From Candidatus Bathyarchaeota archaeon BA2 (GTDB lineage: Archaea > Thermoproteota > Bathyarchaeia > Bathyarchaeales > Bathyarchaeaceae), in the NCBI GenBank assembly GCA_001399795.1, contig LIHK01000010.1:1-53996 (forward strand): a DNA stretch of 53,996 nucleotides, in the 5' to 3' direction. Shown piece by piece: positions 30,975-46,107 of this stretch (its first letter is position 1; each line of letters starts with the position of its first letter). Both the position numbers and the translations under genes were made by a program. The notes below the pieces were generated by a model. The model worked only from the letters and a program-made list of their open reading frames with translations. It did no database searches and was not told the DNA's origin.

Positions 30975-31808
30975 TTGCAACTAAGTAACTGGGTGGAGGT
31001 CACTACATTTACGCTAAGGTTAATTGACATCTTAATCCTTGGTGTTGTTCAGGGGGTAACCGGGTGGCTACCAGTATCCAGTTCAGGGCATCTCGCCATC
31101 GTACAAAAATATCTTGGCTTGAGTAGTAAAGAACACCAGTTAATTTACTTAGACATTATGCTTCATGTGGGAACCTTGGTTGTAATTCTGCTGGCATTCA
31201 GAGAGGACATTGTAAAAATTGTTAAAGCCGTAGCCAGACTGGATTTTAAAACCGAAGAAGGAAAACTGGCTTTATTCATACTTGTGGGAAGTGTACCAAC
31301 AGCGCTGATCAGTTTTACTCTCCGCAGTATCTTCGAATCCTTTTTCGAAAAAATGCTAGTAGTTGGCATAGCATTGTTAGTTACTGGCTTTTTCCTATTT
31401 GCTTCTGAGCGCAGAAAAAGCAACAAAGGATTAGATTATTTTGATTCTTTACTAATAGGAATAGCACAGGGTATCGCGTTTATTCCCGGCATTTCAAGAA
31501 GCGGCTTTACAATAGCTACAGGATTGTTGAGAAAGGTGAAAAAAGAAGTAGCCTTTAGATTTTCTTTTCTACTCTCTATACCAGCGGTGACAGGAACAGC
31601 AATAGCGTCAACAATTACAGAGTTTAGAAGTTTGTCGACTCAAGACATCTATATGCCTACAGTACTTTTCGGCGTAGTAATATCAATGGTCTTAGGTTAC
31701 GTATCCTTAAAATTGTTGCAGAGGGTGGTCATGAAAGGAAAGTTTCACACGTTTTCATATTACTGTTGGACGGTTGGAGCAATAATCATTTTTTACCATC
31801 TTTTTTAA
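30975..31808 (+). CDS. uppP: Undecaprenyl-diphosphate phosphatase (BacA)
   Basis: VQGVTGWLPVSSSGH, PGISRSGFT, FSFLLSIP; the usual TE motif Glu reads Gly here. Confidence 0.88.
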   Translation: MQLSNWVEVTTFTLRLIDILILGVVQGVTGWLPVSSSGHLAIVQKYLGLSSKEHQLIYLDIMLHVGTLVVILLAFREDIVKIVKAVARLDFKTEEGKLALFILVGSVPTALISFTLRSIFESFFEKMLVVGIALLVTGFFLFASERRKSNKGLDYFDSLLIGIAQGIAFIPGISRSGFTIATGLLRKVKKEVAFRFSFLLSIPAVTGTAIASTITEFRSLSTQDIYMPTVLFGVVISMVLGYVSLKLLQRVVMKGKFHTFSYYCWTVGAIIIFYHLF

Positions 31809-31830
31809 TAAGTCTTGTGAAAACAACTTA

Positions 31831-32496
31831 ATGGCAGAAGTGGTGCCGTGCCCTTTCATGAAGAAAAGTCCAAGTGTTGTCTACTGGCTTGGGAACGACC
31901 TGTACCTGAACATAACTAACAGATGCTCCAACAATTGCTACTTCTGCTTTAGAAAATTCAAAGACGGGATACAGGGTTTCAACCTAAAACTGAGAAGGGA
32001 ACCGTCCCCAAATGAGGTAATCAAAAAATTGCAAGAAGTTATAAACAGAAAAAATTGGAGCGAAGTTGTTTTCTGCGGGTTCGGAGAACCCTTAGAGAGA
32101 CTCGATCGTGTTCTCGAGGTTACAAGATGGATAAAAAAGTATTCTGGGATGATTGTTAGAATAGACACCAATGGTCAAGGATGCCTTTTGAACAAAGGAA
32201 GGAAAGTTGTCAGGGAATTGAAGGAAGCTGGCGTAGACAAGATAAGTGTAAGCTTGAATGCTCATGAGAAAGAGACTTACAATCAGGTATGCAAACCAAC
32301 GTTTGAAAACGCATTTGAAAACGTTTTAGGGTTCATTGAAAAAGCTGGGAAGGAGTTTGACGTGGAAATAACTGTTGTAACTATCCCAGAAGTGAATATT
32401 CAAAAGGTAAGGAAAATAGCAAGAAAATTGGGAGTTGGATTCAGGATAAGAGAGTATATACCTTGCTTCTGGTTAAAACCTGTGCCTATAACATGA
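31831..32496 (+). CDS. TatD-associated radical SAM protein
   Basis: LYLNITNRCSNNCYFC, VFCGFGEP, RIDTNG. Confidence 0.88.
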   Translation: MAEVVPCPFMKKSPSVVYWLGNDLYLNITNRCSNNCYFCFRKFKDGIQGFNLKLRREPSPNEVIKKLQEVINRKNWSEVVFCGFGEPLERLDRVLEVTRWIKKYSGMIVRIDTNGQGCLLNKGRKVVRELKEAGVDKISVSLNAHEKETYNQVCKPTFENAFENVLGFIEKAGKEFDVEITVVTIPEVNIQKVRKIARKLGVGFRIREYIPCFWLKPVPIT

Positions 32497-32546
32497 AACG
32501 GTATAAAAGTTGTTATAAGTTGACAGACTTGATAAAAGGTTGACAA

Positions 32547-32789
32547 TTAACCTTCGGGACTAGCCAGCTCAGGAGAGAGAAAACCGACTATGCTGATTTT
32601 GCTTCCACACTTGTTACACTGGATTACCAGTTCTTCCAAAGATTCACCCTTAACCTTTGTTTCCAGAATGGTGTAGACCTCTTCTGTTTCGTCTTCAGGA
32701 GATATGACAACTCCGCAACTGGGACATGGGAAATCTCCCGCTCCCTTGATTTTTGTCAAGTCCACTTCATACACCAGAGGCTGTTTCAC
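32547..32789 (-). CDS. Small zinc-ribbon protein
   Basis: CPSCG and CNKCG pairs. Confidence 0.75.
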   Translation of the reverse strand: MKQPLVYEVDLTKIKGAGDFPCPSCGVVISPEDETEEVYTILETKVKGESLEELVIQCNKCGSKISIVGFLSPELASPEG

Positions 32790-33015
32790 TTTTACCTCTT
32801 CCCTTTATATTTGGTGAATCCTTTTGTCATTTTATGGTAGTAATAACGTTTATGAAGGCTAAGTCTATTTTATATTTCTATATCTAAAACTGTGACTTAA
32901 AAATCGGTTCAGAATCCAAAGTTTAACTTATAGATGAACGCATTAGAAGCCGCGAATCACTTTAAACCAAGACAGATGACATGAAGTTTAACCGAAAGGA
33001 AATCTTCCTCATTTT

Positions 33016-33057
33016 TGGTGCGGCGGACCGGATTTGAACTAGCGAACCTCTACGGGG
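33016..33057 (-). repeat. tRNA-Leu 3' fragment (variable arm to CCA), degenerate
   Basis: CCCCGTAGAGGTTCGCTAGTTCAAATCCGGTCCGCCGCACCA. Confidence 0.8.
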
Positions 33058-33094
33058 CGTAAGTCTTACAAATCAAGAAGTTGAATGTACGTCC

Positions 33095-33421
33095 ATGAGT
33101 AAGACCATTTTTGAAGTTGTTGCAAAATTTGGGAAAAAGGTTAGGTTAACTGAAGGAAAATGTGACCATGTCTGTAAGAGCCATCCAGAAGTGACGGGTG
33201 AAATAGGTAAAATGAAGGAGACTTTAGTCTCGCCGCAGATGATTAGAAGAAGTCTATATGATGAGAAGGTTTGGTTGTTTTATCGTTTCTTCGAGGATAC
33301 GCCGGTTACTGAAAAGTATTTAATGGTGGCTGCGAGAATACTCAACGATGAAGGATTCGTGGTTACAAGTTACTTTACAGACAAGGTTAAGATGGGTGAA
33401 GAAAATTGGAGGGAAAGATAA
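33095..33421 (+). CDS. Putative RelE/DUF4258-like toxin
   Basis: HVCKSHPEV...ETLVSP...FVVTSYFT, upstream of a DUF2283 gene. Confidence 0.7.
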   Translation: MSKTIFEVVAKFGKKVRLTEGKCDHVCKSHPEVTGEIGKMKETLVSPQMIRRSLYDEKVWLFYRFFEDTPVTEKYLMVAARILNDEGFVVTSYFTDKVKMGEENWRER

Positions 33422-33642
33422 ACTTCTTCTTCGATGAAGAGGGTGATGTGTTAGACATCACTTTTGGGGAGCCGAGAAATGCCGTCGCGAAGGAATTAAA
33501 GAATGACATAGCGATACGGGTAGACCCAAAAACTGGGGAAATAGTAGGCATTGTGATACTAAATTTCATGAGAAGATTTAGGTTGAAGAAGAAAACAGAG
33601 AAAATTGAACTTCCCGTCAAAGTCACAATAACCACAAGTTAA
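33406..33642 (+). CDS. DUF2283-family antitoxin
   Basis: FDEEGDVLDITF, IRVDPKTGEIVGIVILNF. Confidence 0.8.
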   Translation: MEGKINFFFDEEGDVLDITFGEPRNAVAKELKNDIAIRVDPKTGEIVGIVILNFMRRFRLKKKTEKIELPVKVTITTS

Positions 33643-33649
33643 CAATTTT

Positions 33650-33668
33650 TGGTGTGGCGGGCAAGACT
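33650..33668 (-). repeat. Short tRNA-Leu 3' end remnant
   Basis: TGGTGTGGCGGGCAAGACT versus intact TGGTGCAGCGGGCAGGATT. Confidence 0.5.
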
Positions 33669-33711
33669 GTTCAAAACCTTGATTTGATCATTAAGGGATT
33701 GAGGGGCAAGC

Positions 33712-33804
33712 TTAAAGCCTTAAAGTTCTATACTGAAATCCATTTAGGTCCTTTAGTCTCCTTAGAAACTCCTTAGTGAAGACAAACTCAAATTTCTTGT
33801 TCAT
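33712..33804 (-). pseudogene. Truncated RelE/ParE toxin
   Basis: MNKKFEFVFTKEFLRRLKDL... stops after 30 aa; overlaps the end of the upstream antitoxin. Confidence 0.6.
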
Positions 33805-34018
33805 TCAAACTCAGCTCTTTGGGGAACTCCTTGAAGCCGAGCAGTCTATCCTTCTGGATGTCTTTCTCGCTAACCTTGATGCTTTCCATAAGCGTCTCAT
33901 CGCTTAGGATCTCTAGGGTCTCTATGAGCCCCTCAACAAGCAAGCGGAGTTTTGGCATCTCTTCGGCTAAAGTCTTCAGATTTCTCCTATCCTCATCGGT
34001 TAAAACCACTTTAACCAA
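33788..34018 (-). CDS. RelB-like antitoxin
   Basis: ETLEILSDETLMESIKVSEKDIQKDRL acidic antitoxin C-terminus. Confidence 0.65.
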   Translation of the reverse strand: MVKVVLTDEDRRNLKTLAEEMPKLRLLVEGLIETLEILSDETLMESIKVSEKDIQKDRLLGFKEFPKELSLNEQEI

Positions 34019-34127
34019 CCTTAGCCACCAACATTGCTTTGTAATCTACAAGAACTGTGCCTCTATTAAAATTTCTCTCGAATAATCTGAAAACCTCCTA
34101 AAATCTCGCTCTTTTAACGGAAATTCA

Positions 34128-34197
34128 TGGTGCGGAGGGTGGGATTCGAACCAGCGAACCCCTACGGGAGAGGACGTCTCCATCTAGGCTTGAGTCC
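34128..34197 (-). repeat. tRNA-Leu(CAA) 3' fragment from anticodon stem to CCA, with degenerate intron
   Basis: AGGACTCAAG-[CCTAGATGGAGAC]-GTCCTC...TTCGAAT...CCTCCGCACCA. Confidence 0.8.
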
Positions 34198-34215
34198 TTA
34201 AAGGGCACTTATGTT

Positions 34216-35112
34216 TCACTTCTTTAGTATAGATTTGATCGTATTGACCAAACTTTCTTCGAGTTTCCTAGCACCTCTAGGATCGTAGGTGTACTCAATC
34301 ACCCTTAGGTGTCTTATGTCGAAGGGGACATCATCCATAGACTGAGTTAATATCACCACTTCTTTGCCCACGGTGTGCGCAATGCCCAACTCATAATATA
34401 CATTGGGATTTTTTCCTGTAACATCAGCAATTACTATCCTCGCCTTACTGATGTATTCCCAGATATCTTCAATTATCTCCCGATTAGAAAAAATGTCATC
34501 CGACCGCATACATTTCATTTTGCATTCTTCAACAATCACCTTCTTAATATGATCTTCATAAATTGGTTGAAATCTCTGTTCAAACGGCATCAACACAAAG
34601 CATAAATTTTGTTCCAAAAGAAATCCTCTTCCTTTGAAAATTGGGTTAATTGTAATTTTACGTCTTGCTTTTTCCTCTTCTTGCAGTTCAAATTCTATGT
34701 ATTCATTTGCAAGATTTTTCAGTGCTTCACCTCGTTCTGCTGTGGAAAGATCAGCGAGACTAGCTGGAATGCTTGCAATCAAAAGTTCGTCGGGTGGAAA
34801 ACCGCAGTATGTAATAGCTAGAGCCTTAGCATCCTCTAGGCCAAGTGGCTCTTCTTTTTTATGCTCATAATAAAACCATCTTGTTTGCCCCGCGATGGCA
34901 CCTTTGTTAGTGATTATCAAAATAATCTCCTTTTTATCCACGGTGATCACTAGATAGAGGGGTCGTAAGAGACGAAGAGATATTCTTTTCATACCTCTCT
35001 CTTCAAGAGTACGTCTGACACTCGATACAAACTCTTCCACACATTTCTGAACATTATCTCTTTTTGGTGTATGAATAGTCGGAGTTAGTAAAAATTGGTC
35101 GAAGAAACTCAT
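34216..35112 (-). CDS. Protein with C-terminal nucleoside-2-deoxyribosyltransferase/TIR-like domain
   Basis: CFVLMPF...RSDD...IADVTGKNPNVYYELGIAH...PFDIRHLRVIEY. Confidence 0.75.
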   Translation of the reverse strand: MSFFDQFLLTPTIHTPKRDNVQKCVEEFVSSVRRTLEERGMKRISLRLLRPLYLVITVDKKEIILIITNKGAIAGQTRWFYYEHKKEEPLGLEDAKALAITYCGFPPDELLIASIPASLADLSTAERGEALKNLANEYIEFELQEEEKARRKITINPIFKGRGFLLEQNLCFVLMPFEQRFQPIYEDHIKKVIVEECKMKCMRSDDIFSNREIIEDIWEYISKARIVIADVTGKNPNVYYELGIAHTVGKEVVILTQSMDDVPFDIRHLRVIEYTYDPRGARKLEESLVNTIKSILKK

Positions 35113-35226
35113 AAGCGTTCACTTTGAAATCAGTACAAAATATCGATGAGTCGCATTTGATTTTTAAATATTATGTAGGATTGTCTATTTCGATATTATA
35201 AATTCTATTTCAAGTTCAGCATACTT

Positions 35227-35278
35227 TGGTGCAGGGGGTGAGATTTGAACTCACGAACCCCTTCGGGACGGGATCTTG
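35227..35278 (-). repeat. tRNA-Leu 3' fragment (anticodon loop to CCA)
   Basis: CAAGATCCCGTCCCGAAGGGGTTCGTGAGTTCAAATCTCACCCCCTGCACCA with intact T-arm. Confidence 0.85.
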
Positions 35279-35280
35279 GG

Positions 35281-35790
35281 TCACCATCTTTTATAAGGAG
35301 TGCTGCTCCATTGTTTTTTCACTTTATTTCGCATAAATTTCTGGAAGTGTATTGCTGGATTGTTTGATTTAGGAACTATTTCAACGACCTCTATGATTAT
35401 GCTTCTTGTTTTTTGATAACGCTCGATAACTTCATTTATATATGTTGTTAACTCTGCAAGTTGACACAGATCAGCATTATGGGCACTTAAAATCTCACCA
35501 GTACTTTCAAACTTATGCTCCTCGTATATGTGATTAAATATATACAACTGAAATTCAAGATATTTTTCAAGATCGCCTTTCTCTGGTATGTTATGTTCCA
35601 GTAGATATCTAGCCATAGCGTAGGTTATAGCCAGCTCATCATAAGTGTAAGGAAACCTTGCTTTGCAATCACTGCATTTATCAAACACAATTTTAATTTG
35701 TCGTTGTTCACTAGGCGACCGGACTTGTCTGGTTTCGATGAATCTCCCACATACCTCGCAAAGCGCATCAGCATTGCTTAAAATCAGCCA
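35281..35790 (-). CDS. Zinc-finger hypothetical protein, true start lost or frameshifted
   Basis: Frame extends upstream of the listed ORF: LCEVCGR...DKCSDCKARFPY, with no in-frame ATG before the first CxxC. Confidence 0.5.
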   Translation of the reverse strand, partial: WLILSNADALCEVCGRFIETRQVRSPSEQRQIKIVFDKCSDCKARFPYTYDELAITYAMARYLLEHNIPEKGDLEKYLEFQLYIFNHIYEEHKFESTGEILSAHNADLCQLAELTTYINEVIERYQKTRSIIIEVVEIVPKSNNPAIHFQKFMRNKVKKQWSSTPYKRW

Positions 35791-35815
35791 TTTCCCCTAT
35801 ACGTATTCGTGCATT

Positions 35816-35968
35816 CTATTCGATGTCAAAAACGTGGCCGCATCTAGGGCATTTAACGTTTTTGAGTTTTTCTTTAACTTTGTCTAGTTCACGGCGACAT
35901 TGCATTGCTTCAGAGGAGTAATGGGCTATCTCTCGATCTTTCCAAAAAGGATACTGACCTCTAGACAT
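35816..35968 (-). CDS. 50-aa zinc-ribbon microprotein (below ORF-track cutoff)
   Basis: MSRGQYPFWKDRE...KCPRCGHVFDIE*. Confidence 0.55.
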   Translation of the reverse strand: MSRGQYPFWKDREIAHYSSEAMQCRRELDKVKEKLKNVKCPRCGHVFDIE

Positions 35969-36029
35969 TTTTCATCAATAGCTAATCAATGAATTGTGTA
36001 GAAAAACTTTTCGAAGGCACTAAATTGAT

Positions 36030-36117
36030 TGGTGCAGCGGGCAGGATTTGAACCTGCGAACCCCTACGGGAAAGGATCTTGAGTCCTTCGCCTTTGACCT
36101 GGCTTGGCGACCGCTGC
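36030..36117 (-). tRNA. tRNA-Leu(CAA), intact, intronless
   Basis: All stems pair: GCAGCGG/CCGCTGC, AAGGA-CTCAAGA-TCCTT, long variable arm, GCAGG-TTCAAAT-CCTGC, CCA. Confidence 0.95.
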
Positions 36118-36212
36118 TGACCAAGCACTTAAATTTGCATACAGAATAATTAAGTATTACTTAAAAGAAAAACACTCAAAAGAAAGCGCTAAAATCAAAA
36201 TGTGGCTAAATA

Positions 36213-36896
36213 ATGGTTAATTTATCAAAAATGGGCAAAGGTAGGCATATTACCTATCATCCGCCAAAAGAAGTTCTTGATATAGAAGTTGCAGAGCTTT
36301 TAGGGCTTCATGCAGGTGATGGTTATATGTCATGCGGAATTTGGGGCGTACGATGCAACCTTCAAGACGAAGACATGGCTCAGCGAATAATACACCTAGC
36401 TCGCAACATTCTTGGAGTAGAACCGTGTGTCCGAATAAGAGAAAACACCTTTGAAATACGCAGCGGGCAAAGGCAAATAGTTCGCTTTTTCCGAAAGTAT
36501 GGCTTTATTGAAGGAAAGAAAGCCTACATCGTTCAAGTACCCAACCAAATAACCTGCACAAACGATTTAAAAATTATTGAGGCGTTCTTAAGAGGCTTAT
36601 TCAGCTCGGATGGAAGTTTCAGTTTCCAGAAAAGAGACTATTCTCCTCGCATAGATTTGATGGTTAGGAGCAGATTGCTAAGAGACCAGTTTGTCGAATT
36701 GGCTGCGAAGGTCGGCTTTTCGTTTAACAAATCCGACGCTATAAGGGTAAAGAAAGGCTTTACAACGAAATCAACTGGAGCCTTCTTTAACGCAAACCTC
36801 GCTTCAAGAGATGATGTACTGAGATGGATGACAACCATAGGCACTCTTTGCGGCACTCATATGAAAAAGTTCAAAGCTTGGCAATCAGAGACTTAA
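36213..36896 (+). mobile_element. Free-standing double-motif LAGLIDADG homing endonuclease
   Basis: ELLGLHAGDGYM and AFLRGLFSSDGSF; no intein Cys1/His-Asn termini and no flanking exons. Confidence 0.85.
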
Positions 36897-36900
36897 CTAA

Positions 36901-36947
36901 CATCTAGCCCCTATACGCATAGATTGACCTGGCTCTGCTACCCCCGC
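36901..36947 (-). pseudogene. tRNA-Leu 5' fragment with promoter and probable 20-nt D-loop intron (36904-36923)
   Basis: GCGGGGGTAGCAGAGCCAGGTCAA|TCTATGCGTATAGGGGCTAG|ATG; helix GGTC/GGCT with 3-nt bulges; upstream GAAAAAATTAATAG. Confidence 0.7.
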
Positions 36948-37055
36948 ACCCGTTTCACAAACTAACTCTTCCTTTCTATTAATTTTTTCCAACGACGGTA
37001 TCATCGTGAATATATTTATGTGTAACAAATCCTTAACGTCCTTGGAGACAGCCTC

Positions 37056-37409
37056 TTGGGGCACGTTCACGTTACAGCGAAGCTAACAAGTCCGATTACT
37101 AACGAAAGTGAAATTGTAGAGTCCCTAGTAGACACGGGAGCCACGTTTACCACGGTTCCCATAAGCTTGAGTGAAAAATTCAAATTGCCTCATGTCACGA
37201 AAAGAAGGGTCAAAACGGCAAGTGGCGAGGAAGAACTGGTTGAATCATATCTCATAATCGAGGTTCTAAACGAAAAAACTACAACCCCTGTACTTATAAG
37301 TGATAAGCTGGATCGAGTTTTGATAGGTGCCTTAACGCTGGAGGCATTAGCCTTTAAAGTAGACCCGAAAACAGGAAAACTTGAAAAAACAGAACTTTTA
37401 CTGCTTTAG
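37056..37409 (+). CDS. Clan AA aspartic protease
   Basis: SLVDTGATFT, LIGALTLEALAFKVDP. Confidence 0.85.
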   Translation: MGHVHVTAKLTSPITNESEIVESLVDTGATFTTVPISLSEKFKLPHVTKRRVKTASGEEELVESYLIIEVLNEKTTTPVLISDKLDRVLIGALTLEALAFKVDPKTGKLEKTELLLL

Positions 37410-37410
37410 A

Positions 37411-37425
37411 CTTGGCTACCGCCGC
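37411..37425 (-). repeat. 15-nt tRNA-Leu 5' end
   Basis: GCGGCGGTAGCCAAG, 1 mismatch to the 5' end of the 37730 copy. Confidence 0.6.
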
Positions 37426-37427
37426 TC

Positions 37428-37541
37428 GACCAGCCGAACTAATCTAACGAATGGTGGTCCCAACCTTTTCGCCCTTAATAACCAACAAAACGTTTTCAGG
37501 CTTGAAGCCGTTCACCACAACCACTCTCATTCTTCTCTTTT
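37428..37541 (-). pseudogene. pyrH: Duplicate of the pyrH 3' end and its downstream 16 nt
   Basis: About 4 mismatches over 114 nt versus 42273-42386. Confidence 0.9.
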
Positions 37542-37729
37542 TTAAGGATTCCTATGAGCTATCCTATAAAGAAAACTTAATCTTTCTCTCTGGAGATAGA
37601 CTCCACCCCATTTTCTTTAAATAATCCCAACATTTGCAGGTCTATTCGCGGTACATGATTAACTAACATTTTATGTGAACGCAAGAAATGTTCGGCTGGC
37701 AAAATCTCCGGTGTTTCACGTAGTCTGGA

Positions 37730-37839
37730 TGGTCGGGCGGGCCGGATTCGAACCGGCGAACCCGTACGGGAGAGGATAGCTCATGGGAGTCCAACCGATC
37801 TTGAGTCCTCCGTGTTTGACCTAGCTTCGCTACCGCCGC
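37730..37839 (-). tRNA. tRNA-Leu(CAA) with 22-nt intron (37778-37799), probably a pseudo-tRNA
   Basis: Full length, BHB helix CTCA/TGAG; acceptor 1-72 and 2-71 mismatched (CCGCCCG-ACCA) and one D-stem mismatch. Confidence 0.8.
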
Positions 37840-37951
37840 CCAATTAGCAAATTTTCTTCTCGCTTCTATTAATTCTTTCCAGTTTTCATAATGCCCAAGT
37901 AGTCAAGGCGGTGGAGGTGGCTTCTCTTCTTAAACGGAGGATTATCAAAGA

Positions 37952-38475
37952 ATGAAAACAATAACTCCTCTGGCACAGCAAGAATATGAGAGAATGTGTG
38001 AAACACTGGGCGGAAAGCCGGTACACTCAACTCTTGCATTTCATTGAGCCAGACTCATAGAACTACTATACGTGGCCGAAAGGGCCGTAGAATTGAGCAT
38101 AGACGAGAGATAACAAGTAAAGACATTAGGAATGAGGTAGGTAGCCTCGGAGAGGGAGTTGGAATAGTCGAAGCGGCCAGGGGCACCCTGATACATCATT
38201 ATCAACTTGACGAAGACGCCCTAATAAAAAAAGTCAATTTAATAGTGGCTACGACAAACAACGCTTCAGCCATATGCATGTCCATAAGAGACGCAGCTAA
38301 AGGTCTCATACACGGCGGAGAAGTGAGTGAGGAAATATTGAACATGGTGGAGATGGCCTTCAGAGCCTACGACCCATGCTGGGCATGCGCCACCCACTTC
38401 GCAATAGGTCAAATGCCCTTTGAACTCAAAATATACAGCCACAACAAAAAGCTCCTAAAAACCCTGAAAAGGTAA
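37952..38475 (+). pseudogene. mvhA: 3' third of a group-3 [NiFe]-hydrogenase large subunit
   Basis: TPLAQQEYERM...GGKPVHSTLAFH*ARLIELLY, frameshift, then VEAARGTLIHHY...RAYDPCWACATH. Confidence 0.85.
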
Positions 38476-38815
38476 CTTTCACAATTCTGATGTTGCTTTA
38501 GGCAAGAAAATCCGCAGCAAAGCAAAAGCCCTTTAAAGTAGCTCGGCAACTCGTAAAAACTTTCATAGGGAGAGCGAAAAATTTTACGTCAAGGATGCTG
38601 AAACGGACGGCAGAATACTTCTACGCAGAAAAGACGAAACAGATACATAACTAAGCAGAAGAGGCTTGATAAATCACCAAATATATGTAACCAGTGAGGG
38701 TGGGCGTTGGATAATGGATTCAGGTGTTAAAAATTGAACTCCCACTTAGGGACAAAGTTCGACAGCAACAGAAATAAGTTAGCTTGCAAGAAATTGAGGT
38801 GCAAAGTGAAGAGTA

Positions 38816-40012
38816 ATGTTAAAGTGTATAAGAATCAAAAATCTAAGATCTATCAAGGAACAAGAAATAGAGGTCGCTCCAGTAACTGTCCTTTACGGTC
38901 CTAACGCCTCTGGAAAATCAACACTTTTGCACGCACTTGCAATTCTAAGAAACGTTATGATGAATCCTAATCAACCTCTTGACAGTTTTTTCAACCTTCT
39001 CTTCGCTAACTTCGGAGGATTTGAACAAGTTGTGTTTAACCATATACCTGACGAACAAATAGAATTAGAAATAGATTCTATACAGGATTCCGCAATTATA
39101 ACATACAAGGTCGTCCTTAGTAAGACGAAGGGAGGTTTTTCGATCCGCGTGAGCGATCCATTTAAGGCCGCATCTAAAATTGAAACAACTTTTCCATACC
39201 AAGCGAACATCCAGCAGAATATTACAGTTAAGTATGACGAGATCCCCTTGACGGTAACTTGGAACGGCATTCTTGCCCAGCCTTTAGGCACACCTGAAGC
39301 CCCAGAGGCTGCGGAGAGGTTGGCTACTTTACTCAATAGTCCCATTGAAGAGCTTCGAAAAACTGATTTTGTTCATATAAAACGAGGTTTTTCTCATCCT
39401 CACTATGGAACTGTATCACTCACCTCTGCACTTTTCACAGAAGGCGAAGTGGCGACGCTTTTAGCTAGTGATCCTTACTTAGAAGGTAAGGTCAGTCACT
39501 ACCTTGAGCAAATTCTTGGAAGAGATTTACGAGTGCGAGTAACGCCTGCAACAGCTCTTTTCTGGCTCAGAACTACAGACAAAATGACTGGATTGTCCAC
39601 CGAGCTTGTCAATGATGGATTTGGGGTTAATCAGCTTGTCTACCTGCTTGCGAAGTGTCTAAGAAAGGATACCTCTCTAATATGCATAGAAGAACCGGAG
39701 ATTCATTTGCATCCGAAAGCTCTAAGAAATCTTGTCTATGAATTGGTGAAACTGGTTAAGGAAGAATGCAAAACTTTGATCATCTCTTCTCACAGCGATC
39801 ACTTTGTTGTATATCTGCTTAGTGCTGTTGCAAAAAAGCAGATAAGCCCCGATGAAGTAGCTTGTTATCTATGCACCAAAACTAAAGAAGGAACCACGTT
39901 TGAGCGCCAGCGAGTGCAACCTGACGGTCGAATGGAGGGCGGATTGTCAAGTTTTATGGAAGGCGAATTAGAAGACCTTAAGACTATTCTAAGTCTTTCC
40001 AAAGAGGAATAA
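38816..40012 (+). CDS. ABC-class ATPase (AAA_15/AAA_21-like, DUF3696-like tail)
   Basis: GPNASGKS, DGFGVNQL signature, IEEPEIHLHP, SSHS. Confidence 0.88.
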   Translation: MLKCIRIKNLRSIKEQEIEVAPVTVLYGPNASGKSTLLHALAILRNVMMNPNQPLDSFFNLLFANFGGFEQVVFNHIPDEQIELEIDSIQDSAIITYKVVLSKTKGGFSIRVSDPFKAASKIETTFPYQANIQQNITVKYDEIPLTVTWNGILAQPLGTPEAPEAAERLATLLNSPIEELRKTDFVHIKRGFSHPHYGTVSLTSALFTEGEVATLLASDPYLEGKVSHYLEQILGRDLRVRVTPATALFWLRTTDKMTGLSTELVNDGFGVNQLVYLLAKCLRKDTSLICIEEPEIHLHPKALRNLVYELVKLVKEECKTLIISSHSDHFVVYLLSAVAKKQISPDEVACYLCTKTKEGTTFERQRVQPDGRMEGGLSSFMEGELEDLKTILSLSKEE

Positions 40013-40019
40013 ACTCGAA

Positions 40020-40472
40020 ATGGAAAGGGAAATTACCGTTGATGAATGGATAGTCCACTTTATATCTGAGCCTCAGAAACGTGAAGTGGCGGTCAAGTTT
40101 TTGGAAAAAGTTCATCAGAAATGTGACAAATTGGTCACTCTGAGAGGAGGACCCTTAGATCAAAAAATATGGAAAATGGCTAAGAGTTCACAAGATTGGG
40201 ATATTGGGGGAAAAAGACTTGTAAAGTGGTTCATGAGAGAATTTAGACTCAGCAGTAAATTTCGCGCTCTTGAAGAATTAGACATGGAACCGTTACCCGG
40301 GGATTTGGAACGAGAGACCCCAGAAGATGACTTATATCTTGTCAAAACTGCAATAAGCACGTTAGACCGCCTTATTGTTACCACAGACGGAGGGCTGAAG
40401 GAAAGGCTATCAAGCAGATCAGAATTGACTGTATGCTTTTTTGATGAATTTTTTAAAGTATATAATTGTTAG
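40020..40472 (+). CDS. PIN-fold-like protein, co-transcribed with the ATPase
   Basis: ITVDEWI, PEDDLYLV, LIVTTDGGL acidic motifs. Confidence 0.65.
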   Translation: MEREITVDEWIVHFISEPQKREVAVKFLEKVHQKCDKLVTLRGGPLDQKIWKMAKSSQDWDIGGKRLVKWFMREFRLSSKFRALEELDMEPLPGDLERETPEDDLYLVKTAISTLDRLIVTTDGGLKERLSSRSELTVCFFDEFFKVYNC

Positions 40473-40886
40473 GAAGCTATTGTTTCGTTATTATCTGCAT
40501 AATTTGTGTTCTGCGTCATAACGCATAACGGATTTTCTGACAAATTTCTTTTTCAATCCCAATTTTCTTTATTTTTAATGAAGAACACAATTTTTACCTG
40601 TAAAATAATTTTTGATGAACTAACTTTGCTAGTAAGACTAGAAGGATTTGCGGGAAAAGGACCTCGAATATAAGTTTTTGACTCTCCAAAGTGGAGAGTT
40701 TTTTATATATTAAATTCTTCTGTTATTAGGCTCCAAATAGACGCATGGAAAGGTACGAATTTTATGGAGGGTTTTGAAGTGTTGTTGGATTTGAAGGCGG
40801 GGAAGGTTAAGCTTAAGAGGTATCCACCCGAAGTCAGGTTAATTTAATTCTCCCACAATGAACATGCTGCGCGTGTTATACGGAAA

Positions 40887-41246: not shown

Positions 41247-41921
41247 ACTGCTTCCTCATCTTTTCAAGGCTTTAGCCACTACTTAAGACTTATGCGTGGC
41301 TTCAGAGAAGGAAACTCTAAGAAAAAGGTTAAGTAGCTATAACCATTCTAGCGCAAGCAGATTTTATTAGTGGATAGGAAACTTCAAACCTAACCTTAGA
41401 CGCGGTGAGAATAAAAATAACCCTAAACAGCGACAGCGCAATAAGACAGCGCAATAACATTTATGACAAAGCTCCTTCCAAGACCGCTACGAGTAAAACC
41501 GAAAACCAGTTTTCTATGGAAACCCGTTTTGTACATGTCTAAACAGTCGGGTAGTGGCTCTGTTAGATAGACCGCCTATATAGCCCCCTCTATATTATAC
41601 TTTCAACATTCTTTCCAGGCTTTGCGGCTTCTATCCCCATTCCAGCGCAATAGATTTCTGAGAAAACCTGTTTTCAACATTTCACCTTATTAGAACCGTA
41701 TAGGATACATAAAAAGGATGGAAAAATCATAACGAGGTGGCGTGAAGAACTTAGGATCCTAGTTATTTCTTCCAACAGGTTTAAAATCAAAAATGGTTTG
41801 ATATTTGATCCTGATACTCCAAAAATAAGCCCCAAATTAATGCAATTATCTACCACTGTGTCCCATTGCTAGAGCACACTGATGTTGCGATTATCGAAAA
41901 GGGACAGGTTAAAGGAATAAG

Positions 41922-41964
41922 CCCCAATTCCAGCCGGCTTCGGCGTAAGAAACTCCTTATAAAT
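41922..41964 (+). repeat. Orphan copy of the 16S rRNA 5' leader/processing strand
   Basis: CCCCAATTCCAGCCGGCTT identical to reverse complement of 46131-46149; similarity continues (AAACTCC, TAAAT). Confidence 0.7.
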
Positions 41965-42288
41965 ATGAATTCGATCTATCTCCAAATTAATAAATTGGTT
42001 AAGAAATCTAAGTTAACTTGTTCTTCATCCTTTTGTGAACTACACAACCAGAACCAACATTAGCACACATGGCAAAAACTTCGATGAAATACGCATCTTA
42101 CATAGAAAGCAAGATGGTGTTAGCGATCAACCGAACGACCTTAACAAACCGGCCCATGACATTCAACAACATACACAAAAACCCATAAACAAACGAGTTA
42201 AAATAGCAAACCTAAAACAAAACCAACACAATAGAGAGGGGGCTATAGAGGGGGCTAGAAAGAGAAAGAGAGGACCAGCCGAACTAAT

Positions 42289-42981
42289 CTAACGAATGGT
42301 GGTCCCAACCTTTTCGCCCTTAACAGCCAACAAAACGTTTTCAGGCTTGAAGCCGTTCACCACAACAATTCTCATTCTTCTCTTTTCAAGAATTTTAACG
42401 GCTTCAGGATCAAGAATTTGATGAATCCCCGCCTTGTGTTTGTTTTCCTCAAACAGCCACGACAAATCATCGAAACCAAGCTCATCAATCTTTTTTGCAT
42501 CCAAATGCTTCTTGGGGTCTTTTGTGAATACGCCGTCTACGTCTGAAGCTTTCACCAACAAATCAGCCTCTATCTTCTCACCCATCATAGCCGCCACAGC
42601 GTCTGTGGTCATGCCGGGCTTCAAACCACCCATAACAACGATTTTTCCCCGCTTCAGACAGCCAAAAGCCTCATCCAAAGAAACTGGCACGGCTCCACAA
42701 CCATCTTCACCCAAACGCATAACAAACAACTGGGCGAAAAGACGCGAAACATGAATTGCAGCCCAGTCTCGTTTCGCCTCGTCCAAACCCAACTCGCCGG
42801 CGATTTTGATGAAGTCACGGGCTAGAGCGCCGCCTCCAACAACTGCAGCAACCTCGTGCCCCTGCCTCTTCAAATCCTTCAACAAATCAGCGTACCTACT
42901 AATCAAAGTAGAGTTGGGAGGAGAGACTATAACGGAACCTCCGACACGAACCACGATCTTCAACTGAAACGCTCCTACCAC
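42289..42981 (-). CDS. pyrH: UMP kinase
   Basis: VGGSVI, VVGGGALAR, GGLKPGMTTDAVA, DVDGVFTKDP. Confidence 0.95.
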   Translation of the reverse strand: MVGAFQLKIVVRVGGSVIVSPPNSTLISRYADLLKDLKRQGHEVAAVVGGGALARDFIKIAGELGLDEAKRDWAAIHVSRLFAQLFVMRLGEDGCGAVPVSLDEAFGCLKRGKIVVMGGLKPGMTTDAVAAMMGEKIEADLLVKASDVDGVFTKDPKKHLDAKKIDELGFDDLSWLFEENKHKAGIHQILDPEAVKILEKRRMRIVVVNGFKPENVLLAVKGEKVGTTIR

Positions 42982-43962: not shown

Positions 43963-44390
43963 TTATTGTGTAGGTTTAAAGAAATAATAAGGGCAAAGAT
44001 AGCCTAGGTGGGAATAACCACGCATATTTGGAGCCTAATAACAGAAGAATATTTGAAAACAATATTTTCTCGGAAAAACCCTTTGCGCTAAAATGGAAAC
44101 AGATCTCCGCGGTGAGTTGAAGCTGCAACGCGGCAAAAGAATGTTGATAGTATATACCCTCCCCCTCTCCAAAGGAGATTTCAAACGTGAAACTCAAGAA
44201 ATCGAAAACAATAACCCGTATCCTCTAACTGCAAAATTTTAAGTATTCTCATGTTAATCTTTAGGGTTCTGGAGGAATAAAATTATATTCAACTTTTTTC
44301 AAAAAATAGTTGACAAAGTAAAACTTGTATGGAATCGTCTTCCATAGTCGGAAAAACTTTTAGAAGCGACAGCTAGTAGGGTTGTGGCTT

Positions 44391-44429: not shown

Positions 44430-46107
<1,678 letters not shown>

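Follow-up and report, generated by a model that had tools for sequence, protein, structure and literature searches.

Small cassettes and tRNA pieces, probably from nested insertions, around the tRNA-Leu(CAA) gene of Candidatus Bathyarchaeota archaeon BA2

The tRNA-Leu(CAA) gene of Candidatus Bathyarchaeota archaeon BA2 lies within a 4.8-kb array of partial tRNA-Leu copies and small gene cassettes, which we analyzed within the 53,996-nucleotide stretch of DNA that carries it (here, the window). The window is the whole of contig C11 (54 kb) of the source genome, G000, a short-read metagenome-assembled genome (MAG) of 1.46 Mb in 57 contigs that is 92.5% complete. Genomes of the family (60 including G000) are given G codes, and loci of relatives, metagenome contigs, and an IMG/VR contig are given L codes; the relatives compared belong to other genera, the nearest pyrH genes being 74 to 81% identical. 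tRNA genes were searched for with ARAGORN and Rfam, the latter in place of the ARAGORN intron mode, which was too noisy here, and tRNA pieces were located by repeat finding and direct reading of the minus strand.

Positions 33015 to 37839 hold one intact tRNA-Leu(CAA) gene, four 3′ pieces downstream of it, two 5′ pieces upstream of it, and one intron-bearing chimeric pseudo-copy (Table 1). The intact gene is the sole CAA isoacceptor found in the genome. An earlier reading made from the letters alone (the sequence-only reading) had described eight tRNA-Leu segments, and all eight were recovered, the piece at 34127 being longer than it had been described; the stop codons at 35281, 36896, and 37409 abut or nearly abut tRNA pieces, exactly as that reading had placed them. 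A 26-nucleotide (nt) tRNA-Leu motif matched five times in the array and twice in the rest of the 1.46-Mb genome; in the other 59 family genomes it matched zero to five times per genome, and a reversed control pattern gave no match.

Table 1. Features of the array, of the region between the array and pyrH, and of cassettes at other tRNA genes of G000 (aa, amino acids; ORF, open reading frame; MITE, miniature inverted-repeat transposable element; TA, toxin-antitoxin; positions are those of the window unless a contig is named)
Feature	Position	Strand	Remark
Outermost 3′ piece, anticodon-loop region to CCA	33015-33075	-	
Oldest cassette: PBECR2-like toxin (108 aa) and DUF2283 protein (78 aa)	33095-33642	+	
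Shortened 3′ piece, acceptor 3′ strand and CCA only	33650-33665	-	orthologue is a 25-nt piece in L061
Decayed cassette, three parts	33664-34018	both	
PBECR2-like toxin gene fragment	33664-33748	+	88% to C2:1549-1633
RelE/ParE-like N-terminal stump	~33787-33749	-	
76-aa antitoxin-like ORF	33788-34018	-	
3′ piece from anticodon stem (AAGGACTCAAG)	34127-34201	-	13-nt intron inside
One-gene cassette: 298-aa NDT/TIR-like protein with own upstream region	34216-35225	-	
3′ half of c-type tRNA-Leu(CAA)	35226-35288	-	T arm GTGAG/CTCAC, acceptor CCCCTGC; partner is the 5′ piece at 36947
Cargo of central module: 135-aa ORF and 50-aa zinc-ribbon ORF	35281-35968	-	
Intact d-type tRNA-Leu(CAA), intron-less	36030-36117	-	ARAGORN and Rfam, 55 bits
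Free-standing double-motif LAGLIDADG endonuclease gene (227 aa)	36213-36896	+	divergent from intact tRNA
c-type 5′ piece	36901-36990	-	5′ part 36901-36947, promoter-like box to 36990; includes D-loop-intron remnant
Retropepsin-like aspartic protease (117 aa), 5′-side cassette	37056-37409	+	
15-nt 5′ piece (GCGGCGGTAGCCAAG)	37411-37425	-	2 nt from end of pyrH 3′-end duplicate
Duplicate of last 98 nt of pyrH plus 16 nt	37428-37541	-	96.5% vs 42273-42386
Copy of T arm, 3′ end, and 160-nt flank of another tRNA	37572-37759	-	98% to C4:7509-7696
a-type tRNA-Leu(CAA) with promoter and canonical intron, chimeric	37730-37881	-	tRNA 37733-37839, sub-threshold, 21.7 bits
NiFe-hydrogenase large-subunit gene fragment, internal deletion	37920-38476	+	91% to C22:24047-24561
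ABC/AAA_15 ATPase, AriA-like, and 150-aa unannotated ORF 7 nt downstream	38816-40472	+	PADLOC NsnB 1.6e-38
MITE-like insert, ~680 bp, TAGCCCCCTCTATA inverted ends	41585-42265		directly after pyrH
pyrH (UMP kinase), conserved flank	42289-42981	-	tRNA-Leu(CAA) directly after it in relatives
TA cassette at another tRNA: RHH and PIN	C26:6204-7320		
TA cassette at another tRNA: 211 aa and 107 aa	C47:12960-14285		
TA cassette at another tRNA: RelE-like and 145 aa	C1:9380-10550		

The pieces vary in extent and condition. The acceptor strand of the outermost piece (CCGCCGC) matches the GCGGCGG 5′ parts at 37425 and 37839, and the piece is orthologous to the distal piece of the L061 array. The T stem of the 34127 piece is mismatched (GCTGG/CCCAC), and the portion of this piece up to the T loop travels with the NDT/TIR-like cassette. 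The copy at 37733 to 37839 is an a-type tRNA fused within the T arm to an end derived from a tRNA on contig C4; since pairing is lost at 1:72 and 2:71 in the acceptor and at one place in the D stem, we conclude that it is a pseudogene. What the sequence-only reading had called a damaged full copy is thus indeed a copy scoring below threshold, but a chimeric one. A promoter-like TTAATAGAA box is kept in two of the 5′ pieces, as it might be if the pieces functioned as split-tRNA genes with trans-joined transcripts, such as those of Nanoarchaeum or Caldivirga, and many non-canonical introns occur in archaea of this kind. Yet a repeat search of the window found no inverted repeat linking 5′-piece trailers with 3′-piece leaders, as a split-tRNA bulge-helix-bulge would, the pieces overlap or lack positions 27 to 33, several stems are broken, and an intact gene is present. 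We conclude that the pieces are almost certainly not working split tRNAs.

An array of repeated tRNA sequence in a short-read MAG could also be an assembly artefact in which alleles of coexisting strains were threaded together through shared tRNA sequences. The repeats at 37428 to 37541 and 37572 to 37759 exceed the k-mer length, and many MAG contigs of relatives end inside tRNA-Leu genes (e.g., G018:C37:7-32, G041:C64:24-49, and G045:C14:17-42), which in itself suggests strain-variable inserts across the family. Against an artefact, Logan unitigs of the source run, an independent assembly, cover 31500 to 37457 at a depth of 28 to 37, equal to that of the core flanks, and the junctions at 37512 to 37601 and 37719 to 38028 are covered by unique unitigs at a depth of 33 to 37. 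Moreover, the two duplicated segments bear single-nucleotide polymorphisms of their own, and the same architecture recurs in contigs from other samples (L060, L061, L063, L066, and L075). Given the even unitig depth across the joints, we conclude that the array is real DNA of one haplotype and that the chimeric assembly of which the sequence-only reading had warned is very improbable.

Comparison of tRNA-Leu loci among relatives indicated that the number and identity of cassettes change exactly at the tRNA pieces, as had been anticipated from the letters alone. Both G012 and G014 have no cassette, pyrH being followed after about 50 nt by tRNA-Leu(CAA) and then directly by a conserved core gene. 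One cassette is present in G006, where the same PBECR2-like and DUF2283 pair as at 33095 to 33642 is closed by a 3′ piece that starts from the anticodon. The G008 locus consists of a full tRNA, a 2.4-kb cassette encoding a restriction-enzyme-like ORF and a TIR protein, and a displaced intron-bearing 3′ piece. Three cassettes lie between 3′ pieces in L061 (a 349-aa ORF, a PIN toxin-antitoxin pair, and the DUF2283 pair); two of the three are unlike those of G000, and the distal one has its orthologue in the window, as do the two pieces that belong to it. G000 itself has four cassettes, and L075 has at least four pieces.

The cargo of the array is mainly TA and defense genes. Cassettes lie on both strands, and the NDT/TIR-like cassette has a conserved upstream region of its own. 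The PBECR2-like and DUF2283 pair adjoins tRNA-Leu in G006, L060, and L061 as well as in G000, and homologues of the aspartic protease occur within the arrays of L060, L064, and L073. The next interval contains the antitoxin and RelE stump that the sequence-only reading had described there and, in addition, a PBECR2-like toxin fragment on the plus strand. In the central module, the stop codon of the 135-aa ORF falls inside the c-type anticodon stem, and unrelated genes take the place of this ORF and its zinc-ribbon neighbor in relatives. Elsewhere in G000, three other tRNA genes carry one TA-only cassette of about 1 kb each, closed by a tRNA 3′-end copy and without an integrase (Table 1).

The NDT/TIR-like cassette delimits a unit most closely. 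Its protein matched a PADLOC TIR effector (E value, 3e-11) and is 95% identical in L073 and 86% identical in L075, each time within another tRNA-Leu array. In L073 the copy has another chromosomal context, behind a tRNA-Leu(CAG) gene, and is flanked by a NucS-like nuclease cassette and by sequence resembling the start of the DUF2283 cassette; the L075 copy belongs to a third array with different neighbors. When the G000 and L073 DNAs were aligned, identity was 95.2% in the gene, 100% in the 14 nt past the stop codon, 83.7% in the downstream tRNA piece from position 27 to 53 (up to the T stem), 68.4% from the 3′ strand of the T stem to the 3′ end (about 61 to 76), and 20.6% beyond the piece. 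On the other side, homology begins directly past the CCA of the upstream piece. These limits define a unit made of an upstream region, a gene, and a tRNA-like arm, and the fall in identity around the T loop is the pattern expected of a crossover there, such that the exchange point appears to lie in or near the T loop. We conclude that the 3′ cassettes behave as discrete units, with homology that stops around the T loop of the flanking pieces; recurrence of this one in three arrays, the tRNA-Leu(CAG) locus among them, bears out the cassette behavior claimed earlier.

The other ends of the pieces converge on a single point. All 5′ pieces stop, and all 3′ pieces of these arrays start, at about tRNA positions 26 to 31, on the 5′ side of the anticodon. 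The point is sharpest for the allele that we call c-type, which is characterized by an acceptor of GC(G/A)GGGG/CCCCTGC, a T arm of GTGAG/CTCAC, and a D-loop intron. Its 5′ half stops after GCGCGG, at about position 26 in the piece at 36901, where it abuts the stop codon of the LAGLIDADG gene, and its 3′ half starts at GGACTCAAG. In G000, L063, L064, and L066, c-type 5′ pieces stop where c-type 3′ pieces start, with 0 to 1 nt of overlap (one base in L063), and the two halves rebuild the intact allele of G008 and G010. In both G010 and L060, the 5′ pieces stop at the same point, which is also the exact site of a 28-nt intron in the resident tRNA of L060. The pieces come from different alleles, as had been claimed, in that they match resident tRNA-Leu genes of other genera: the d-type tRNA is one base and a D-loop intron apart from the resident gene of G016, which belongs to another genus, and a-type pieces resemble the resident gene of G012. 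Separately, introns of resident tRNA-Leu(CAA) genes in relatives were observed at varied places, namely, the D loop, about position 28/29, and the canonical site (L060 9770-9886, L063 2426-2544, and L038 17296-17398); the L063 gene has two introns at once, and intron position varies between otherwise near-identical alleles.

What separates the c-type halves in G000 is a clean insert of three parts: the LAGLIDADG gene, the intact d-type tRNA preceded by an upstream region of its own, and the cargo. The encoded protein matched Pfam LAGLIDADG_3 (1.5e-9) and Hom_end, among solved structures it is closest to intein endonuclease domains, with a weak match to I-Tsp061I, and residues D36 and D133, one motif aspartate each, are invariant across 23 homologues down to 36% identity. 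Metagenomes contained 65 homologues, mostly of 220 to 240 aa. A conserved housekeeping role, considered because of these same-length homologues, was ruled out by the presence of the gene in 3 of 60 family genomes and by its differing chromosomal contexts: homologues adjoin tRNA-Leu in six of them (pyrH, CODH/ACS, rpoB, molybdenum cofactor genes, a TA-rich contig, and L075). The L060 enzyme is 90% identical to that of G000 versus 69% for the flanking pyrH and lactamase_B genes, which argues for horizontal spread of the module. G010 presents the mirror case: there a d-type gene is split, and its 5′ and 3′ halves enclose a 44%-identical enzyme together with a c-type tRNA that is itself intact. 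c-type and d-type DNAs differ by several bases on either side of the junction. Two endonuclease-plus-allele pairs, we infer from these arrangements, have invaded each other's alleles. A literature search on LAGLIDADG enzymes with tRNA-Leu and archaea returned nothing relevant.

As the sequence-only reading had stated, no integrase is present in the window: a six-frame hidden Markov model (HMM) search of contig C11 gave no match to PF00589 or PF16795, and tblastn with a family integrase left the recombinase part unmatched, the only query stretch to match being the one translated from the tRNA gene. Within about 10 kb of eight arrays (L060, L061, L063, L064, L066, L068, L073, and L075), no called gene had a tyrosine-recombinase domain, and no recombinase-domain gene occurred among the called genes of about 20 cassettes in 11 arrays. 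As a positive control, an element at tRNA-Leu in G061 does carry a tyrosine integrase. Direct repeats of the tRNA 3′ part bracket the inserts, in the form of the four 3′ pieces downstream of the intact gene, and integrase-less units recur at the same type of site (the NDT/TIR-like unit in G000, L073, and L075 and the DUF2283 unit in G000, G006, L060, and L061). A scan of IMG/VR for an attP-like site returned one contig that carries a terminase gene and part of a tRNA-like sequence, plus one unrelated tRNA, and no integrase; the tRNA-like part (L077, 4930-5010) is a tRNA-Leu-like segment of variable arm and T arm at the end of a large-terminase gene. The 135-aa ORF and other ORFs abutting tRNA pieces were also considered as split integrase halves and rejected, as they had no similarity to the G061 integrase and no Pfam matches.

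One way in which cassettes could accumulate without a local integrase is an integron-like platform, in which a recombinase encoded elsewhere would use tRNA-Leu-like sites as attC and the tRNA gene as attI to assemble promoter-bearing mini-cassettes. New cassettes do lie beside the tRNA with the shared old DUF2283 cassette distal, cassettes retain their own distal piece up to the T loop, and the motif TTCGCTGGTTC recurs in pieces of different arrays (34127 in G000, L061, and G008). However, no candidate recombinase is conserved beside the arrays, where the sole conserved neighbor is the LAGLIDADG gene, and the genome-wide search for a tyrosine recombinase found integrase fragments on other contigs and no intact PF00589 gene in the 92.5%-complete genome. 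HMM and tblastn searches of the contig found no IntI-type recombinase next to the array, every joint aligns to tRNA-Leu at about 27 to 76 with no attC-type hairpin site, and a repeat search found no other repeat family bounding cassettes in the window. Nor is there a common Pc-type promoter with co-oriented promoterless cassettes, since cassettes lie in both orientations and have upstream regions of their own. Chimeric T arms had been entertained as proof of an integrase crossover, an argument weakened for the 33015 piece by a GCTGG/CCGGC stem that is legitimate in a G008 piece; resident genes of G009 and G021 likewise have GCTGG in the T stem, and the argument holds only for the 34127 piece, together with its identity gradient. 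We consider an integron-like platform improbable, and of the two options left open by the sequence-only reading, integron-like or homing-driven, the homing component gains support for the central block of LAGLIDADG gene, tRNA, and cargo.

We conclude that the locus probably represents nested, site-specific insertions of integrase-less modules that carry replacement parts for the tRNA. The target would be one spot of tRNA-Leu(CAA), on the 5′ strand of the anticodon stem at about positions 26 to 31, and the incoming modules would be small (0.5 to 1.6 kb), each supplying a replacement for the tRNA part that it displaces. Modules with a new 3′ part and one or two cargo genes would push the old 3′ part downstream, giving rise to the four 3′ pieces, and modules that bring a promoter along with their cargo, and either a fresh 5′ part or a complete tRNA, would push the old promoter and 5′ part upstream, giving rise to the 5′ pieces, with one functional tRNA-Leu(CAA) gene kept at every step. 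The central layer would be a homing-endonuclease element within a c-type allele, in which the enzyme may cut alleles that lack it and repair may copy the endonuclease gene, a cut-resistant replacement tRNA, and the intervening cargo. For movement of the 3′ cassettes, three candidate routes may be considered: action in trans of a tyrosine integrase encoded by larger elements, repair of endonuclease breaks, and simple homologous recombination at the pieces. Trans-acting integrases, or old integrations that have lost all but the addictive genes, remain good candidates for the origin of the 3′ cassettes, and capture during break repair stays an alternative because the piece ends coincide with the endonuclease-linked insertion point.

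Several observations weigh against insertion of integrase-less modules and point instead to ordinary debris, that is, to successive integrase-bearing viruses or plasmids that entered tRNA-Leu and were whittled down by deletion until hard-to-lose TA and defense genes survived, with the 5′ pieces left by rarer elements that target the 5′ half. In archaea, tandem re-use of tRNA attachment (att) sites, rare targeting of the 5′ half, and integration into protein-gene 3′ ends are documented, and SSV- and pNOB8-type elements as well as thaumarchaeal integrated elements occur in tandem at tRNA genes (PMC6563490). The tycheposon islands of Prochlorococcus contain partial tRNAs and degraded elements and integrases (10.1101/2020.12.28.424599). 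The G061 element is 16.4 kb, its integrase gene reads through tRNA-Leu, and its att repeat starts from about position 40; four fragments of related integrases lie on other contigs of G000, which fits ordinary integration followed by loss. At 33650 to 33790, a deletion scar joins the RelE-like stump to the PBECR2-like toxin fragment beside the truncated 33650 piece, and TA pairs are over-represented among the cargo. Older layers of the array decay by deletion, and from the scars in older cassettes part of the array is ordinary decay. Moreover, the cassettes at the tRNAs on C26, C47, and C1 are closed by pieces of ordinary integrase-type att extent, from the T loop or the anticodon stem. Both the division of alleles into types a, b, c, and d and the numbering of tRNA positions are our own reading of alignments, and we observed neither cleavage sites nor circular cassettes, nor any empty-site polymorphism inside a single population; no alternative joint or empty site was seen in contigs of the source run, which drop rare variants such that absence is not implied.

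Other observations are hard to reconcile with debris. About 20 cassettes in 11 arrays are without a recombinase-domain called gene, and the window is without an integrase remnant in six frames. Several cassettes are too tight to accommodate an integrase gene, as in L061, where the 349-aa ORF fills 1.13 kb between pieces that are identical from the T loop to the 3′ end, and the limits of the NDT/TIR-like cassette are unchanged in three arrays with different neighbors. Finally, the clean split of the c-type gene fits insertion and not erosion. We therefore regard debris as an unlikely but serious account of the whole array and retain nested insertion, with decay of its older layers, as the better one.

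A bolder possibility is that the LAGLIDADG enzyme is the engine of the whole array, its breaks being repaired from donors with tRNA-like flanks such that cassettes and alleles would be captured without a recombinase. If so, the array would be a homing-based functional analogue of an integron that drives allele turnover and gain of protective introns at the cut site of an essential archaeal tRNA gene, with rival endonuclease-allele pairs (c versus d) replacing each other. Arrays without a nearby LAGLIDADG gene (G006, G008, and L073) speak against any general role of the enzyme, and the cargo beside the intact tRNA is different in every relative, for which homing of a fixed module does not account. 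In addition, the TA cassettes at three other tRNA genes indicate that mini-cassettes are a genome-wide habit independent of the endonuclease, and, with their ordinary att extents, that the endonuclease cannot be the general engine. We consider the whole-array version doubtful. The overall interpretation of the sequence-only reading is thus supported for cassette behavior and a homing component; it is not supported as a dedicated recombinase platform, nor does it extend to the TA mini-cassettes at other tRNAs, the decay scars, or the separate mosaic.

That mosaic, left of 37430, contains the duplicate of the pyrH 3′ end, the copied tRNA flank, the hydrogenase fragment, and the MITE. An older layout in which pyrH was directly followed by tRNA-Leu is indicated by the pyrH duplicate, which lies 2 nt from the 15-nt 5′ piece. 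Duplicated pyrH 3′ ends downstream of the real gene were observed in G000 and G016 (L049 1240-1345), and a separate fragment of the pyrH C terminus was observed at G006:C206:5623-5943; on the basis of these duplicates and this fragment, the pyrH 3′ end looks like a second recurrent insertion site. The 4.7 kb from the pyrH duplicate to the real pyrH hold the MITE-like insert, a PaREP1 gene, a defense-type ATPase pair, and the hydrogenase fragment, a copy from contig C22. The ATPase and the adjoining 150-aa ORF are a candidate two-gene defense system, and the hydrogenase fragment is either cargo or debris beside the chimeric tRNA. Copies of the MITE-like element are present on C48, C9, C38, C5, C12, and C17. 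A repeat of about 27 nt occurs at 40714 to 40740 and at 44025 to 44050, with copies 93 to 100% identical on at least 10 contigs and a hairpin (CTCTCCACTTTGGAGAG) right beside it, and may be a terminator or a small repeat element. Further along, the 16S rRNA gene (44430-46107) measures 1,678 nt versus the 1,478 positions of the model and thus contains an insertion or intron of about 200 nt.

Elements accreted at tRNA genes are the closest known counterparts of the array; among them are the CIMEs (cis-mobilizable elements) of streptococcal integrative and conjugative elements. Like these, the locus has a full tRNA at one end, co-oriented partial copies between inserts, the newest insert beside the tRNA, adaptive or defensive cargo, and decaying older units. 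Unlike these, its units are 0.5 to 1.1 kb with one or two genes, its 11 arrays are without an integrase-domain called gene, promoter-bearing 5′ pieces are stacked upstream in mirror order, the joints all fall at one anticodon-stem point, and the resident tRNA has been replaced by foreign alleles. Four features set the locus apart from known tRNA islands: its units are tiny and integrase-less, its 5′ pieces form a mirror stack, its insertions share one point, and its endonuclease carries a replacement tRNA.

Free-standing homing endonucleases, some with a replacement gene end, include the Seg and Mob enzymes of phage T4, such as the tRNA-cluster enzyme SegB, and mobile endonuclease ORFs in fungal mitochondria. 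The LAGLIDADG gene resembles them in lying outside an intron or intein, in or against its presumed target gene, in being patchy and better conserved than the host flanks, and in a target that is kept functional by carried sequence. It differs in having a chromosomal tRNA gene of an archaeon as its target and an entire second allele, promoter included, as the rescue; in addition, variable cargo lies between the old halves, and two diverged enzymes show reciprocal replacements (c into d and d into c). With integrons, the array shares ordered small, mostly single-gene cassettes, each ending in a recombination-site-like repeat, with content that varies among close relatives, but here no IntI was found, tRNA 3′ halves take the place of folded attC sites at the joints, a common promoter is absent, and cassettes lie in both orientations.

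An archaeon without a detectable active integrase can thus still build and reshuffle a small defense and TA island, one tied to a single hot spot, at the nucleotide level, within an essential tRNA gene. The central block offers a concrete case of a homing endonuclease traveling with a spare tRNA gene. If our reading is right, three puzzles of archaeal tRNA genes would be explained: orphan tRNA halves, replacement by foreign alleles, and non-canonical introns at the invaded position.

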